Virus record (IMG/VR): IMGVR_UViG_2681813273_000006 | DNA: 6,030 nucleotides | From: a virus | Taxonomy: Duplodnaviria; Heunggongvirae; Uroviricota; Caudoviricetes | Direction: 5' to 3' (one strand) | In this document: piece by piece, positions 1 through 6,030 of the stretch | Numbering within the stretch: position 1 is the first letter of the stretch | Layout: every line of letters starts with the position of its first letter | Position numbers and translations under genes: made by a program | Notes under the pieces: model-generated | Database searches by the model: none | What the model was told of the DNA's origin: nothing | What the model saw: the letters and a program-made list of their open reading frames with translations, nothing else

Positions 1-151
1 AATGGGTTAAGTGATAACAGGTGTCTGGAAATATAGGGGCAAATCCAGCGTTCATCAGCCCCCGCATTGCCGACAGGATCACAGACGGGGGGCGCAACTG
101 GTTGTCGTTCAACTGGCCCAGCTACCGTTCTTGTATCAGAGGTGTGGCTGC

Positions 152-1543
152 ATGACAACACCAGTCTGGCGTAATGATGACCTGGAAGGCGCTGTCATTG
201 GCGCATTCTTTCTGCGTGGGGCAGATCATGAAGTGATGGATATTCTGATCACACTACCGGCGGACATTTTTTCTGTACGAGCGTATCGGGATATCTACAC
301 AGGCATCTGCAGACAGGCCCGTGTTTCAGGAGTGATTGACCCCGTGCTGTTGTGTAATGAGATGCCGGAACTTGCCCCGGTGATTACTGATACCGGGCGT
401 AAAACCTGGGTGAAGTCTTCACTGGAGCACTATGTTGCAGCGTTGCGGCGCAATGCCGCACTGCGCGATGCAGAAAAAACACTGAATGAGGCGCTGCAGA
501 AATTACGTGATGCGCATACCTGTGAAGCAGCTGAAGATGCCCTGAAGGATGCGCAGAACATGATGGTCACACTGTCGACAGGAAAGGGCGTCATTCAGCC
601 GGTACATATTGATGATGTGCTTCCGGAAGTGGTTGAGCGTGTTGAATGCCGGAATCAGGGGCTGGAGAAATCCAGGACGTTGATGACCGGTATTGATGAA
701 CTGGACGCAAAAACAGGCGGTATGGAGCCCGGAGACCTGGTATTCATTGCCGCCCGTCCTTCGATGGGGAAAACCGAACTTGCGCTGGACATCATCGACA
801 AGGTGACTGAGCAGGGGCATGGTGTGCTTCTGTTCACCATGGAGATGGCGAACATCCAGATTGGTGAACGTATGGTGTCTGCGGCTGGAGGGATGCCAGT
901 ATCACGCCTGAAATCTGTGGCTCACTTTGAAGATGAAGACTGGGCGCGTTTCTCACAAGGGGTGGGGCGGATGACCGGGCGCAATATCTGGATGGTGGAC
1001 CAGGCGAACCTGACCATTGATGAGATATGCGCAACAACGAAACACCATCTGATTAAACATCCGGAAACGGCGCTGGTGGTGGTTGATTATCTCGGGCTGA
1101 TAAAAACCCGAACCACGGGGCGTCATGACCTTGCCGTGGGTGAAATCTCAAAGGGGCTTAAAGGCCTGGCAAAATCCGGTGGTTTTCCGTTGATTGCGCT
1201 GAGCCAGCTCTCCCGCGGTGTGGAGTCCAGACCCAATAAACGTCCCATGAACTCAGACCTGAAAAATTCCGGAGAAATAGAGGCGGATGCAGACATCATT
1301 CTGATGCTTTACAGGGATGAAGTGTACAACCCGGATACACAGGCTACAGGCATAGCAGAAATTAATATCACGAAACAACGTAACGGTTCTCTGGGGACGA
1401 TTTACCGGCGTTTTTATAACGGACATTTTCTGCCTGTGGACCAGGAAAGCGCACAGGTTCTTTCCACCCCAATGCGGCAGCCCCAGCCGCGCAGATACAG
1501 CAATACACGTACCGACAGCAGTAAGATGGAGCGTTTCTTTTGA
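152..1543 (+). CDS. Phage-encoded DnaB-family replicative DNA helicase (P22 gp12-like). Start could instead be the GTG at 11.
   Basis: Long ORF with recognisable DnaB motifs: Walker A-like IAARPSMGKTE, and [43 protein letters not shown] closely resembling the E. coli DnaB C-terminal region. ATG at 152 has a GAGG Shine-Dalgarno 9 nt upstream. The ORF stays open back to GTG at 11, just after an in-frame TAA at 8-10. Confidence 0.85.
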   Translation: MTTPVWRNDDLEGAVIGAFFLRGADHEVMDILITLPADIFSVRAYRDIYTGICRQARVSGVIDPVLLCNEMPELAPVITDTGRKTWVKSSLEHYVAALRRNAALRDAEKTLNEALQKLRDAHTCEAAEDALKDAQNMMVTLSTGKGVIQPVHIDDVLPEVVERVECRNQGLEKSRTLMTGIDELDAKTGGMEPGDLVFIAARPSMGKTELALDIIDKVTEQGHGVLLFTMEMANIQIGERMVSAAGGMPVSRLKSVAHFEDEDWARFSQGVGRMTGRNIWMVDQANLTIDEICATTKHHLIKHPETALVVVDYLGLIKTRTTGRHDLAVGEISKGLKGLAKSGGFPLIALSQLSRGVESRPNKRPMNSDLKNSGEIEADADIILMLYRDEVYNPDTQATGIAEINITKQRNGSLGTIYRRFYNGHFLPVDQESAQVLSTPMRQPQPRRYSNTRTDSSKMERFF

Positions 1544-1554
1544 ACAACCAGACA

Positions 1555-1647
1555 ATGACTTTTACCTCTGAACAATTGCGTAAACACGCGCAGGAAATGT
1601 TGCGACAGGCGGAACAACTGGAAAAAACAGGTGTAACAAAAGATGCC
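1555..1647 (+). CDS. 5' fragment of the small helical protein gene, cut off by the N-run; identical to 2780-2872
   Basis: ATG at 1555, 12 nt after the helicase stop. Sequence is identical to the start of the complete copy at 2780-3022 and runs into the gap at 1648. Confidence 0.5.
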
Positions 1648-1658
1648 NNNNNNNNNNN
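1648..1658. other. Assembly gap (11 N)
   Basis: Run of n characters in the sequence; sequence on either side is not collinear. Confidence 0.95.
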
Positions 1659-1682
1659 GTATTAAGACTATCACTTATTTAA

Positions 1683-1844
1683 GTGATACTGGTTGTCTGG
1701 AGATTCAGGGGGCCAGTCTACGGACATTTTCTGCCTGTGGACCAGGAAAGTGCACGGGTGCTTTCCACTCCCATGAAGCCCGGCAATCCGCGCAGATACA
1801 GTAATAAACGAACTGACAGCAGTAAGATGGAGCGTTTCTTTTGA
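1683..1844 (+). pseudogene. Helicase remnant in paralogous copy B: 53-codon in-frame ORF joining an N-terminal-proximal segment to the helicase C-terminal tail
   Basis: 1679-1720 aligns at about 70% identity to window 7-50 (TAA-GTG-ATA...). 1721-1844 aligns to the helicase 3' end 1420-1543 ([18 protein letters not shown]) in the same frame with the same stop. No internal stop codons. The roughly 1.4 kb helicase core is absent. Confidence 0.45.
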
Positions 1845-1855
1845 ACAACCAGACA

Positions 1856-2098
1856 ATGACTTTTACCCCTGAACAATTGCGTAAACACGCGCAGGAAATG
1901 CTGCGTCATGCTGAACAACTCGAAAAAACGGGCATAACAAAAGACGCTATCCGTAAAGATATGGTACCCGCGCTTCGGGAACTGATGCAGGCGAAGCATC
2001 GCGCACAGAAAGCAGTAGATGAGCTGGTGGACTGTGTGGCAGAGCTGGAAACCAGAGTCGGAAAGTTTGAAAAACTGGTGCAGGAGGTGCTGCGCTGA
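1856..2098 (+). CDS. Small alpha-helical phage protein (80 aa), copy B, function unknown
   Basis: ORF with ATG at 1856. Protein is about 92% identical to the copy at 2780-3022, with differences mostly conservative (I/V, R/K, L/M). Its stop overlaps the rusA start in a TGATG arrangement. Confidence 0.6.
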   Translation: MTFTPEQLRKHAQEMLRHAEQLEKTGITKDAIRKDMVPALRELMQAKHRAQKAVDELVDCVAELETRVGKFEKLVQEVLR

Positions 2099-2438
2099 TG
2101 CGCCATGAGTTTATTTTACCTTATCCGCCGACGGTGAATACTTACTGGCGACGTCGTGACAACACATATTTTGTATCAAAAGCCGGTGAGCGTTATCGCC
2201 GGGATGTGGCGCTTATTGTCCGTCAGCAGCGACTGAAATTAAGCCTGTCCGGAAGACTGGCGATAAAGATTATTGCAGAGCCACCGGATAAGCGCCGTCG
2301 TGACCTGGACAATATCCTGAAAGCACCACTGGATGCACTGACACATGCGGGAGTGTTAATGGACGATGAGCAGTTTGATGAAATCAATATCGTTCGTGGT
2401 CAGCCAGTATCTGGTGGACGTCTGGGGGTGAAGATTTA
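2098..2438 (+). CDS. rusA: RusA-family Holliday junction resolvase, copy B, 3' end truncated at the ambiguous base / contig join
   Basis: Translation matches RusA motifs ([41 protein letters not shown]). The ORF-track product reads through the n at 2439 into helicase-tail sequence, which is not a real protein. Confidence 0.6.
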
Positions 2439-2439
2439 N

Positions 2440-2768
2440 GCGGTGTGGAGTCCAGACCCAATAAACGTCCCATGAACTCAGACCTGAAAAATTCCGGAGA
2501 AATAGAGGCGGATGCAGACATCATTCTGATGCTTTACAGGGATGAAGTGTACAACCCGGATACACAGGCTACAGGCATAGCAGAAATTAATATCACGAAA
2601 CAACGTAACGGTTCTCTGGGGACGATTTACCGGCGTTTTTATAACGGACATTTTCTGCCTGTGGACCAGGAAAGCGCACAGGTTCTTTCCACCCCAATGC
2701 GGCAGCCCCAGCCGCGCAGATACAGCAATACACGTACCGACAGCAGTAAGATGGAGCGTTTCTTTTGA
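2440..2768 (+). pseudogene. 5'-truncated copy of the helicase C-terminal coding region; likely an assembly duplicate, not an independent gene
   Basis: Identical to helicase 1215-1543 and begins immediately after the n at 2439. The listed 2445-2768 ORF simply starts at an internal Met. Confidence 0.55.
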
Positions 2769-2872
2769 ACAACCAGACAATGACTTTTACCTCTGAACAA
2801 TTGCGTAAACACGCGCAGGAAATGTTGCGACAGGCGGAACAACTGGAAAAAACAGGTGTAACAAAAGATGCC
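2440..2872 (+). repeat. Exact 433-bp direct repeat of 1215-1647 (helicase 3' end plus start of the small ORF); probable contig overlap
   Basis: Base-by-base comparison of 1215-1647 with 2440-2872 shows identity at a constant offset of 1225. The repeat is bounded by the single n at 2439 and, in the first copy, by the N-run at 1648. Confidence 0.85.
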
Positions 2873-3022
2873 ATTCGTCGGGATATGGTGCCAGCGCTCA
2901 GGGAACTGATGCAGGCGAAACATCGCGCACAAAAAGCGGTGGATGAGCTCGTTGATTGTGTGGCAGAGCTGGAAACCAAAGTTGGAAAGTTTGAAAAAAT
3001 GGTGCAGGAGGTGCTGCGCTGA
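2780..3022 (+). CDS. Small alpha-helical phage protein (80 aa), copy A, function unknown
   Basis: ORF MTFTSEQLRKHAQEML...VQEVLR with ATG at 2780. Stop overlaps the rusA ATG (TGATG). No clear Shine-Dalgarno, so the start is uncertain (TTG at 2765 is an alternative). Confidence 0.65.
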   Translation: MTFTSEQLRKHAQEMLRQAEQLEKTGVTKDAIRRDMVPALRELMQAKHRAQKAVDELVDCVAELETKVGKFEKMVQEVLR

Positions 3023-3393
3023 TGCGCCATGAGTTTATTTTACCTTATCCGCCGACGGTGAATACTTACTGGCGACGTCGTGGCAGCACATATTTTGTAT
3101 CAAAAGTTGGTGAGCGTTATCGCCGTGATGTGACGCTAATTGTTCGCCAGCAGCGGCTGAAATTAAACCTGTCCGGAAGGCTGGCGATAAAGATTATTGC
3201 AGAGCCACCGGATAAGCGCCGTCGTGACCTGGACAATATCCTGAAAGCACCACTGGATGCGCTGACGCATGCCGGACTACTCATAGACGACGAGCAGTTT
3301 GATGAAATCAATATTGTGCGCGGTCAGCTCGTTCCTGGTGGGCGACTGGGCGTGAAGATTTATGAAATCACAGGTGATAACGATGGCGCGTGA
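3022..3393 (+). CDS. rusA: RusA-family Holliday junction resolvase (endodeoxyribonuclease RusA)
   Basis: 123-aa ORF with RusA signatures, including the acidic motif RRRDLDN and the DDEQ / GGRL region; resembles E. coli prophage RusA. AGGAGG lies 10 nt upstream of the ATG. Confidence 0.85.
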
Positions 3394-3769
3394 TATTCAG
3401 CAGGTTATGGAACGGTGGGGGGCTTGGGCTGCAAACACTCATGAAGATGTATCCTGGGCGTCGATCGCTGCTGGTTTTAAAGGGTTAATTCCGTCGAAAG
3501 TGAAATCACGCCCTCAGTGTTCTGATGATGATGCAATGATAATTTGTGGCTGTATGGCCCGGTTGAACAAGAAAAATCAGGATTTGCACGATTTGCTGGT
3601 GGATTATTACGTAGGTGGAATGACTTTTATGAGTCTGGCACGGAAACATGGGTGTTCGGATACCTGTATTGGCAAGCGCCTGCAGAAAGCGGAAGGGGTT
3701 ATTGATGGCATGTTGATGATGCTTGATATCCGGCTGGAGATGGACAGATACGTAGAACGAATTATGTAG
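3383..3769 (+). CDS. Late-gene antiterminator Q (phage 82 / DLP12 quuD-like family)
   Basis: [28 protein letters not shown]...[16 protein letters not shown]...GKRLQKAEG strongly resembles my recollection of E. coli prophage Q (QuuD-type) proteins. ATG at 3383 has an AGGTGA Shine-Dalgarno 5 nt upstream and overlaps the rusA stop. A strong promoter follows at once. Confidence 0.8.
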
Positions 3770-3773
3770 GTGC

Positions 3774-3803
3774 TTGACCAGACACATTGTCCGGGGCTAT
3801 ATT
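3774..3803 (+). promoter_or_regulatory. Sigma70 late promoter (PR'-like) immediately downstream of Q
   Basis: TTGACC (3774-3779), 18-nt spacer, TATATT (3798-3803). The position directly after the Q stop matches lambdoid late-promoter/qut architecture. A 6-bp hairpin CGCCAG/CTGGCG sits at 3811-3828 in the initial transcribed region. Confidence 0.6.
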
Positions 3804-3864
3804 CCTCACGCGCCAGCAAAATCTGGCGTCGGGATTGGAACCCCGGATAGAGACCGCGACAGAC

Positions 3865-3889
3865 ACACGCCGCGAGCGTGTTTTTTATT
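3865..3889 (+). terminator. Intrinsic terminator (tR'-like), ending a roughly 77-nt leader RNA from the late promoter
   Basis: Stem ACACGC / GCGTGT with loop CGCGA, followed by TTTTTTATT. Confidence 0.6.
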
Positions 3890-4243
3890 GTCGTATGCAC
3901 GCGCACATCTGAATTATGGTGGGGCGCATGGGGGAGCTGAAAAGCTCGCCGGTCGGTTTCCCGGTAGTTCCAACCCTGTGCGTCTCACCACCCGATGATT
4001 GGAACCTGACGGTGTTGACAGTTTCAGGTTTGCAGTTTACATTTCCCCGCGGTGCTCAAAACACCTCGAAAGCGGTATCCACACCCGATAGCCATGTGGT
4101 TTTTTTGTGTCCAGAATTCTTGGTTTATGACCGGGTGTGCGGCTAATACAATACCAGCAATGGAAATACGCCCGCCGACTTTCGACGGTTTTGAGCGCCC
4201 GGTCACCCTCTCAAAAGGGGTAAATCAAAATATTCGAAAGGAC

Positions 4244-4813: not shown

Positions 4814-4889
4814 AAATTTTTTCCGAAAACTTTACGATCGTAAAAAGTTGAATATCCTGTTAAGAGTGGTTACTACGCCACACAGCTTA

Positions 4890-4915
4890 AACCCGCCGAT
4901 GAGCGGGTTTTTTTA
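4890..4915 (+). terminator. Intrinsic terminator downstream of the ORF6N gene
   Basis: Stem ACCCGC / GCGGGT with loop CGATGA, followed by TTTTTTTAT. Confidence 0.65.
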
Positions 4916-4964
4916 TACCTGAAAAACGGCACAGGACGTTAAACGTGCTGGTGGTCAGATGAGT

Positions 4965-4993
4965 TTGCAGATGTGATGACATATGGTTATTAT
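4965..4993 (+). promoter_or_regulatory. Sigma70-like promoter directly upstream of the tRNA cluster
   Basis: TTGCAG (4965-4970), 17-nt spacer, TATTAT (4988-4993). The first tRNA starts 10 nt downstream. Confidence 0.45.
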
Positions 4994-5002
4994 TCTGCCT
5001 CC

Positions 5003-5079
5003 GGCCCTTTAGCTCAGTTGGTCAGAGCGAGCGACTCATAATCGCCAGGTCGCTGGTTCAAGTCCAGCAAGGGCCACCA
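5003..5079 (+). tRNA. tRNA-Ile2 (anticodon CAT, lysidine type, ileX/ileZ-like); tRNA-Met not formally excluded
   Basis: Manual cloverleaf: acceptor GGCCCTT/AAGGGCC, D-arm GCTC..GAGC, anticodon loop CTCATAA, T-arm GCTGG TTCAAGT CCAGC, discriminator A plus CCA. Closely resembles E. coli ileX. Confidence 0.8.
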
Positions 5080-5080
5080 A

Positions 5081-5157
5081 CCACCACTAGCTCATCCGGA
5101 TAGAGCATCAACCTTCTAAGTTGACGGTGCGAGGTTCGAGTCCTCGGTGGTGGGCCA
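5081..5157 (+). tRNA. tRNA-Arg (anticodon TCT, reads AGA)
   Basis: Manual fold: acceptor CCACCAC/GTGGTGG, anticodon stem TCAAC/GTTGA with loop CTTCTAA, T-arm CGAGG TTCGAGT CCTCG, discriminator G plus CCA. Confidence 0.8.
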
Positions 5158-5159
5158 GC

Positions 5160-5235
<76 letters not shown>

Positions 5236-5238
5236 TAT

Positions 5239-5313
<75 letters not shown>

Positions 5314-5926
5314 GCGAGATTTGAGACGAAGGTTGTTATTTGCACTGACACAATATTGTGTGGGAATGTCTGACTCCTTACCATCTCCTGTTCTGTGATG
5401 TTGTTTTGTTGCAGTTCCAGTGCTCTTTTTTCAGCACCAGAATGGTGCATTGTCGGTCAGGTTACGTAGTGAACCTCTGGCAGGGGACTGATGATTCATC
5501 ATTCTGGTGTTGTAAATATCTCTTCGGACAACTTACAAAATATTCTAAGCAAACCCCGGGAACACACTCTTAACTGCCTTGGCTGGCGGTTTTTTGTACA
5601 GCGCTCGGTATGTGTGAGCTGGAAATCAGATTTTGCATGGACTGGAATCATGCTGTTATTTAGGGGCGAAGAACTGGCTTTTTCTTCCGCCTTCTCACCA
5701 GTAACGATTAGAAAAATAATGAAATGCCCCCCTCCGGGGAGGAGGACCGTAGAAAAAAGGACCCGCCAGCAAAAACATTGGGGATGAACAGCTTTCGCTA
5801 CTCAGATTGCTGGCGGGTAAAGTTCCTCATGAATTAAGAATGCTACGCGATCTTTTTTAATGGAAATGAAAATTATTGTCAATTAGTCGTGCGTGTTTTT
5901 TCATACAATATTGGTAAAGGTGATTC

Positions 5927-5960
5927 AGGCCATCAGAGTTTTGCTGATGGCCTTTTTTCT
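5927..5960 (+). terminator. Strong intrinsic terminator
   Basis: 10-bp perfect stem AGGCCATCAG / CTGATGGCCT with 7-nt loop AGTTTTG, followed by TTTTTT. The reverse strand lacks a T-run, so it is + strand specific. Confidence 0.75.
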
Positions 5961-6030
5961 TTCCGATAGCACAGGTCTGTCGGGGGGGTGCCCCTATTAA
6001 GTTGTCAAGCATGTTATGACCCCTGCGGGG

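Follow-up and report, generated by a model that had tools for sequence, protein, structure and literature searches.

In a virus of the class Caudoviricetes (IMG/VR record IMGVR_UViG_2681813273_000006), a perfect 14-bp palindrome lies just beyond a cluster of tRNA genes, and the question it raises is whether it is a binding site for a dimeric protein, a hairpin in a transcript or an accident of composition. We analyzed the whole 6,030-nt stretch that holds it (the window) together with related prophage loci. On the structural model set out below, the palindrome is probably a stem-loop arm, H1, of a conserved RNA in the 3′ trailer of the tRNA cluster, and not an operator.

Setting of the palindrome in the prophage

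The window represents the late-operon leader in a lambdoid prophage from Escherichia or Shigella. Its features outside the region of the palindrome are as follows:

First in order: RusA gene and Q antiterminator gene (PF05866, PF06530)
3774-3803: promoter-like site, from a promoter scan
3797-3849: c4-a1b1, Rfam match above the gathering score
3810-3886: isrK, Rfam match above the gathering score
3912-3995: C4 antisense RNA, Rfam match above the gathering score
4129-4212: sRNA-Xcc1, Rfam match above the gathering score
4250-4813: ORF6N-domain gene (PF10543)
4889-4910: terminator, between the ORF6N gene and the tRNA cluster
5003-5313, + strand: prophage tRNA cluster of tRNA-Met(CAU), Arg(UCU), Thr(UGU) and Gly(UCC), from ARAGORN, Rfam and the RefSeq annotation of relatives
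5572-5597, + strand: first canonical intrinsic terminator after the tRNAs, AACUGCC-UUGGCU-GGCGGUU (5572-5591) followed by UUUUGU
5927-5963, + strand: second, stronger intrinsic terminator, a 10-bp stem with a U-run, some 40 nt ahead of the start codon that the holin has in close relatives

The tRNA-Met(CAU) is labelled Ile in the RefSeq annotation. About 680 nt of the window after the tRNA cluster are gene-free, and close relatives continue past this gene-free stretch with a cassette of holin, endolysin and spanin genes (the holin at position 7164 of relative L001 corresponds to about 5995 of the window). Upstream of the tRNAs there is a weak promoter-like site at 4964-4993 (9/12), and BLAST homology with relatives of 83-87% identity starts at about 4975-5003, past the −35 hexamer of this site. 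The same uncertainty, between a promoter of the tRNAs' own and the late promoter only, has been stated for P22-like phages (PMC8022706).

Several observations concern other parts of the window. The row of Rfam RNAs at 3797-4212 lies just downstream of the Q gene and the promoter-like site and upstream of the ORF6N-domain gene, and resembles an immunity cassette of the P1/P7 c4-ant type, or else an IsrK-like module of Gifsy-1, placed in the late-operon leader. Positions 1-3400 contain an N-run (1648-1658) and a single N (2439), and direct repeats of 300 nt that start at 1419, 1720 and 2644 (71-87% identity) yield two to three diverged copies of a helicase C-terminus, an 85-aa ORF and RusA, so that the left half of the window looks like a stitched or collapsed assembly. 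At the other end, the last ~40 nt (5989-6030) diverge from close relatives, which run on into the holin gene, and phage records with the IS110-family element ISEc20 match the window end; this suggests an IS insertion or a contig junction at 5989-6030.

The palindrome, ACACAATATTGTGT, occupies 5348-5361 and equals its own reverse complement, exactly as first described; its G...G flanks leave it unextended beyond 14 bp. The tRNA-Gly (5239-5313; ARAGORN) ends 34 nt before it, in agreement with the 35 nt given in the preliminary description. That description also held such a palindrome to be unlikely by chance in 6 kb, and this did not stand. From base composition, 0.35 perfect palindromes of at least 14 bp are expected per window, and 31% of 1000 dinucleotide-preserving shuffles of the window contained at least one (mean 0.38). 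The window itself has a second perfect 14-bp palindrome, TTTACGATCGTAAA, at 4831-4844, past the stop codon of the ORF6N gene (4813) and ahead of the 4889-4910 terminator. As a bare sequence, the palindrome is therefore ordinary and statistically unremarkable. The signal that appears to rise above chance is visible only when relatives are compared, in that 5-nt arms stay complementary across diverged prophages.

The H1 stem and the structured block around it

The comparison set consisted of ~120 loci from Escherichia and Shigella prophages, with 42 distinct versions of the 5′ domain of a structured block that always directly follows the prophage tRNA-Gly and is co-oriented with the tRNAs and with the Q and holin genes. 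The predicted parts of this block and of the linker before it, all on the + strand, are as follows in the window:

5314-5341, + strand: U/A-rich linker from the tRNA-Gly 3′ end to the domain, predicted to be mostly unpaired and poorly conserved (alignments A1 and A2; window fold)
5342-5347, + strand: 5′ strand of helix P1, GCACUG, pairing with 5418-5423 and closing a four-way junction
5348-5361, + strand: H1, the reported palindrome, with arms ACACA (5348-5352) and UGUGU (5357-5361) and loop AUAU (5353-5356)
5362-5389, + strand: H1b, second arm, starting at a conserved GGG (GGGAAUG ... CAU-CUCC; single-sequence MFE folds)
5390-5417, + strand: H2, third arm, abutting the P1 3′ strand (MFE folds)
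5418-5423, + strand: 3′ strand of P1, CAGUGC, 70 nt downstream of GCACUG (alignments A1 and A2, RNAalifold, MFE)
5424-5431, + strand: conserved U-run UCUUUUUU, which separates the junction from the long hairpin and whose T columns are invariant in A2
5428-5516, + strand: H4, a long, imperfect, G·U-rich hairpin of ~89 nt, with 34 predicted pairs in the alignment (RNAalifold)

Seventeen H1 variants were found in the 120 loci, and 16 of them (117 loci) keep 5-6 consecutive pairs; the remaining variant (3 loci) is down to a 3-bp stem. The register is constant, directly after the invariant GCACUG and directly before GGG in 16 of the 17 variants. The form present in the window, ACACA-AUAU-UGUGU, occurs in 25 loci and belongs to a group that we call type A, together with ACACAU-UAU-AUGUGU, ACAUA-UUA-UAUGU and CACAU-UUU-AUGUG. 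Type B, in about 65 loci, has GCGUA and UACGU arms around a U-rich loop of 6-10 nt, with the wobble variants GUGUA, GCGUG and UGCGU. Between the two types there are five substitutions in the ten stem bases, all of them transitions that preserve pairing: pairs 3 and 4 are fully compensated (A-U to G-C and C-G to U-A), and pair 1 is A-U in one lineage and G·U in the other. The remaining stem changes are G·U wobbles, on the + strand only. Unlike the stem, the loop and the neighboring linkers carry indels and transversions, and loop length ranges from 3 to 10 nt among relatives. IMG/VR was also scanned for members whose stem has a pyrimidine as its third base or a purine as its fourth, and gave chance matches only; at position 2, the sole non-C base found in IMG/VR was U, giving a U·G pair.

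What is conserved in related prophages is thus the pairing of the arms; their sequence and the center of the motif have changed. The central ATAT, which makes the palindrome 14 bp long rather than 10 bp, is peculiar to this one variant (25 of 120 loci) and would be an RNA loop, so the 14-bp perfection is incidental.

Taken alone, H1 is a weak stem (−0.3 to −3.6 kcal/mol across variants; −3.0 kcal/mol in the window), and under a permissive search ~25% of arbitrary positions yield a hairpin of 5 bp or more, as do 23.5% of shuffled segments. In addition, the variants are kin by descent, comprising two deep lineages and a few single changes. For these reasons H1 by itself is only moderate evidence, and the case for it comes from the larger fold to which it belongs. 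Of the 42 distinct 84-99-nt domains, each folded alone, 40 have one and the same four-way junction as their MFE structure, in which H1 is the first arm; among interior-shuffled controls, only 11% give any four-way junction.

The strands of P1 are invariant, and this invariance gives no covariation support for their pairing; GCACUG is the same in all family members, including those of alignment A1, which was BLAST-derived with no pattern imposed, while two of the retrieval patterns imposed GCACTG or CAGTG(C). In strain 214-4 the 3′ strand is CAGUGU, which retains a G·U pair. The arms of H1b differ among relatives yet remain complementary in MFE folds (GGGCG/CGCCC, GGGAUGU/ACAUCCU, GGGAGCAGG/UCUGUUCUC), and in the four-pair version of H2 given by RNAalifold all four pairs show changes on both sides. 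As RNAalifold on the MAFFT alignment mis-registered H1 in some type A sequences and missed H1b, arm-level statements on H1 and H1b rest on anchored counting and single-sequence folds. In H4, 97.7% of pair cells are paired, with 216 G·U and 6 A·C cells; the window segment folds at −40.4 kcal/mol, and the hairpin ends in GGUGUUGUAAA, where homology among relatives stops.

Two sequence motifs were seen within the block. The apical loop of H1b in the window is 13 nt long, UCUGACUCCUUAC (5369-5381), and in the window (5370-5382) and most type A members it holds a conserved CUGACUCCUUAC(C), in which CUCCUUA resembles the anti-Shine-Dalgarno end of 16S rRNA. This motif is replaced by AAUCUUUAUCC in one type A variant and is missing from type B. 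A hammerhead-like CUGAUGA in H4 of the window was considered and rejected; it is unconserved in relatives and has no Rfam match.

Across the whole block, pairs were counted in 31 representative sequences on the RNAalifold structure with H1 extended to five pairs (1548 pair cells). As many as 97.3% of the cells were paired, against 33-50% when the 3′ partners were slid by 1-3 columns, and the covariation score was 0.259, against at most 0.094 in the slid controls. None of 500 shuffles matched the observed paired fraction or the covariation score, and nine pairs had changed on both sides. The block behaves as an RNA of the + strand: G·U cells outnumbered A·C cells by 293 to 19 and reading the opposite strand lowered pairing from 97% to 80%, in a structure whose prediction on the + strand by itself favors G·U counts. 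The fold of the window RNA reached −68.6 kcal/mol on the + strand (z = −2.3) and −45.3 kcal/mol on the − strand (z = −0.55), and that of a type B copy had z = −7.9.

There was no conserved reading frame in the block. The longest stop-free stretch shifts in strand, frame and position among members (at most 31 and 37 codons in two of them), and a small protein encoded by the block was ruled out, as no frame was consistent across members. A search of 5314-5570 against Rfam 15 with E up to 1 returned nothing but a chance match of a miRNA precursor to the long hairpin (E = 0.75), and a type B locus searched in the same way likewise matched no family at the block. Judged from sequence comparison, the block has the general attributes of a conserved structured RNA, namely covariation, strand asymmetry and the lack of a reading frame.

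Downstream, an AACCGCC-loop-GGCGGUU-U7 terminator was present in all of 80 distinct members, starting 50-160 nt past the block, with a conserved stem and a variable loop. Lying between tRNA-Gly and this conserved terminator, the block makes up the structured core of the cluster's 3′ trailer. In the mechanism that we propose, the H1 stem-loop (ACACA/UGUGU, loop AUAU) would form in the + strand transcript, the strand of the tRNAs and of the late operon, as the first of three arms in a cloverleaf-like four-way junction closed by P1 (GCACUG/CAGUGC), and the U-run and ~89-nt imperfect hairpin after the junction would complete a block of ~175 nt (5342-5516). The role of H1 would be architectural, through stacking in the junction, since only its pairing is conserved and not its sequence or loop. 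Once the tRNAs are excised, the block may persist, with or without the terminator, as a separate structured RNA (in this window ~250-280 nt with the terminator included); alternatively, the block may shield or insulate the transcript beyond it.

Other readings of the palindrome

A cloverleaf at the end of a tRNA array invites a further reading, that the junction including H1 is recognized by tRNA-maturation enzymes and punctuates the ends of the trailer RNA or of the lysis mRNA, with putative cuts by RNase P at the base of P1 and by RNase E in the flanks. The topology is in its favor, with a closing helix of 6-8 bp, three arms and the last of these abutting the 3′ strand as a T arm does, and there are precedents: bacterial RNase P cleaves non-tRNA RNAs of phages (phi80 M3, P1/P7 C4 and P4 CI), and RNase P substrates without a T loop have been documented (PMC5499578, PMC11143913). 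The likeness to tRNA, however, ends with the four-way junction, the terminal helix and the seat in a tRNA array. The domain is 84-99 nt long, its arms differ greatly in length from those of a tRNA, H1 adjoins P1 with no spacer bases, conserved D-, T- or anticodon-loop motifs are absent, and the P1 3′ strand is followed not by RCCA but by UCU, UGA or UAA and then the U-run. ARAGORN and the Rfam tRNA model (E up to 1) did not detect the domain in any locus; ARAGORN called only the four annotated tRNAs in the window, with no tRNA or tmRNA at the block, and none in the trailers that were searched from five relatives. A tRNA or pseudo-tRNA was rejected on these negative searches. Recognition of the junction as a tRNA mimic is, on balance, rather unlikely.

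About equally unlikely is that the palindrome is an AT-rich, self-complementary stretch of spacer with no function of its own, its apparent conservation reflecting the shared ancestry of the tRNA module. The frequency of such palindromes in shuffled windows, the second, different palindrome in this one, the ease with which the search used finds hairpins of at least 5 bp at arbitrary positions, the marginal stability of H1 and the loss of most of its stem in one variant all agree with this reading. Against it, the stem keeps the same register in both lineages despite five substitutions; those substitutions preserve pairing, in contrast to the changes in loop and linkers; and H1 forms an integral part of the fold that 40 of 42 sequences gave independently.

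The preliminary description favored an operator-like site for a dimeric protein, with the ORF6N protein as a candidate. On this reading a dimeric regulator (an ORF6N/Ant-like protein or a repressor) would bind the DNA here and control nearby transcription. Perfect two-fold symmetry over 14 bp is typical in size of sites for helix-turn-helix dimers. The operators of phage 434 are 14 bp long with ACAA...TTGT ends; the palindrome shares this length and perfect dyad symmetry with such lambdoid repressor operators and contains ACAA-TA-TTGT, but with a spacing of N2 where the 434 type has ACAA-N6-TTGT. The search for more copies or half-sites that had been proposed came back with a single copy in the window (at up to 3 mismatches, the only other match being 3306-3319 with 3) and one in a 41-kb related prophage region (at up to 2 mismatches). 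A scan of both strands placed no sigma-70-like promoter closer than ~90 nt to it; the nearest calls are 5227-5254, inside a tRNA, and 5692-5720. In relatives the arm sequences change (ACACA to GCGUA) with complementarity kept, and the arms stand 3-10 nt apart, a range that rotates and separates half-sites and that a protein dimer of fixed geometry would not tolerate; the wobble pattern, moreover, makes sense in RNA only. Linkage to ORF6N is inconsistent as well: the palindrome is also present in L001 and L004, where no ORF6N gene is annotated in the interval from the antiterminator gene to the tRNAs, and the 41-kb L143 has no ORF6N/KilA-N annotation. An operator is accordingly very improbable.

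Least probable of all is a terminator or attenuator hairpin of the tRNA cluster, for although the site lies just past the last tRNA, a likely place for the terminator of an operon, its stem has five AU-rich pairs (2 of 5 G-C; −3.0 kcal/mol) and is followed by GGGAAUG without a U-run, the terminator scan did not call it, and the canonical terminator of the whole family stands ~210 nt downstream at 5572-5591. Of the earlier suggestion of an RNA hairpin acting as a signal after the tRNAs, the stem-loop has gained support and termination has not.

Comparable RNAs, distribution and meaning of the element

The conserved RNA of which H1 is probably an arm was compared with RNAs of similar position. 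In E. coli, 3′ETS-leuZ of the glyW-cysT-leuZ unit is a sponge RNA of ~50 nt, Hfq-dependent, with a short seed and a terminator. Like it, the block follows the last tRNA of its unit in an RNA that ends at the unit's intrinsic terminator, between the last tRNA (ending at 5313) and 5572-5591, the position of a tRNA-operon 3′ETS; by analogy, release by tRNA processing and not from a promoter of its own would apply to the block RNA as well. The block is, in contrast, ~175 nt long, conserved, highly structured and separated from the terminator by a variable 50-160 nt. 3′ETS-leuZ is named in the RIL-seq tables for EPEC (PMC8550237).

The tRNA clusters of phages also yield stable small RNAs, such as species 1 and 2 of T4 (rnaC, rnaD). 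With these and with phi80 M3, P1/P7 C4 and P4 CI, the block shares the character of a structured phage RNA that is co-transcribed with tRNAs or processed like them, a likeness that for the T4 and phi80 RNAs is one of description alone. No likeness in sequence or to a model emerged, and the Rfam C4 model matches the window at 3912-3995 and not at the block. A lead toward phi80 M3 was dropped, as the DH5alpha copy of the element lies in a Rac-like and not a phi80-like prophage.

A third group is formed by the small RNAs of prophage late regions (PasA/PasC/PasD, AgvB, AsxR, Esr41, STnc100, IsrK), which occupy the same interval of lambdoid prophages between the Q antiterminator and the holin, and are likewise non-coding and found in Escherichia and Shigella only. 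Those RNAs, however, are 80-240 nt long, bind Hfq and have their own terminators, and no Rfam family of prophage sRNAs matched the block. PasA/PasC/PasD were set aside for lack of similarity to the E2348/69 pasA, pasD2 and pasC loci (by BLAST only), and AgvB and AsxR are unrelated, with no match to their Rfam models. One type B locus had a weak, sub-threshold match to STnc100, downstream of the block. The closest known kinds are thus the 3′ETS RNAs of tRNA operons and the stable RNAs of phage tRNA clusters, and by the tests run the element is in neither.

When the 220 nt after tRNA-Gly were used as query, 224 E. coli genomes matched, 215 of them at 70-73% identity and 9 at 95% or more; the tRNAs and lysis genes neighboring the block vary among these genomes. 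With the commoner type B as query, megablast found the block in 298 complete E. coli genomes out of 5,426, among them DH5alpha and EAEC 042, and a pattern scan of IMG/VR gave about 100 further loci. In GTDB, with one genome per species, the element was confined to three species: E. coli, Shigella flexneri and E. ruysiae. Neither Rfam nor genome annotation includes it, and it is apparently an undescribed structured RNA module.

Two loci deserve separate mention. A fragment of the LT-IIb enterotoxin phage SerU-LTIIb (L003) contains two copies of tRNA-Gly plus trailer (1201-1520 and 3107-3420), the first of type B and the second of type A, and a holin gene or a fragment of one comes after each; this double copy shows that duplication and exchange involve the module as a whole. 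The DH5alpha copy (L136, 2400-2610) is of type B and 100% identical in two DH5alpha assemblies, and lies in the late region of a Rac-like prophage with tRNA-Thr, tRNA-Gly and an intact-looking holin and endolysin cassette.

More tentatively, and with some doubt, the block could represent an undescribed family of phage RNAs associated with tRNA arrays, a tRNA-shaped module that would be cut from the late or tRNA transcript by the host's tRNA-maturation machinery. If so, the palindrome would be the D-arm-like helix of this module, and what is cut out would serve either in trans, as a stable RNA, or as an insulator setting both the 5′ end and the stability of the lysis-gene mRNA. As for the palindrome, the operator idea can be dropped, and what it marks instead is a ~175-nt RNA block with strong comparative support. 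Placed between the tRNA and lysis genes, the block bears on how tRNAs are released from the late transcript and how the lysis genes are kept silent in lysogens, and the predicted helices, together with the copy in DH5alpha, make this question directly testable.
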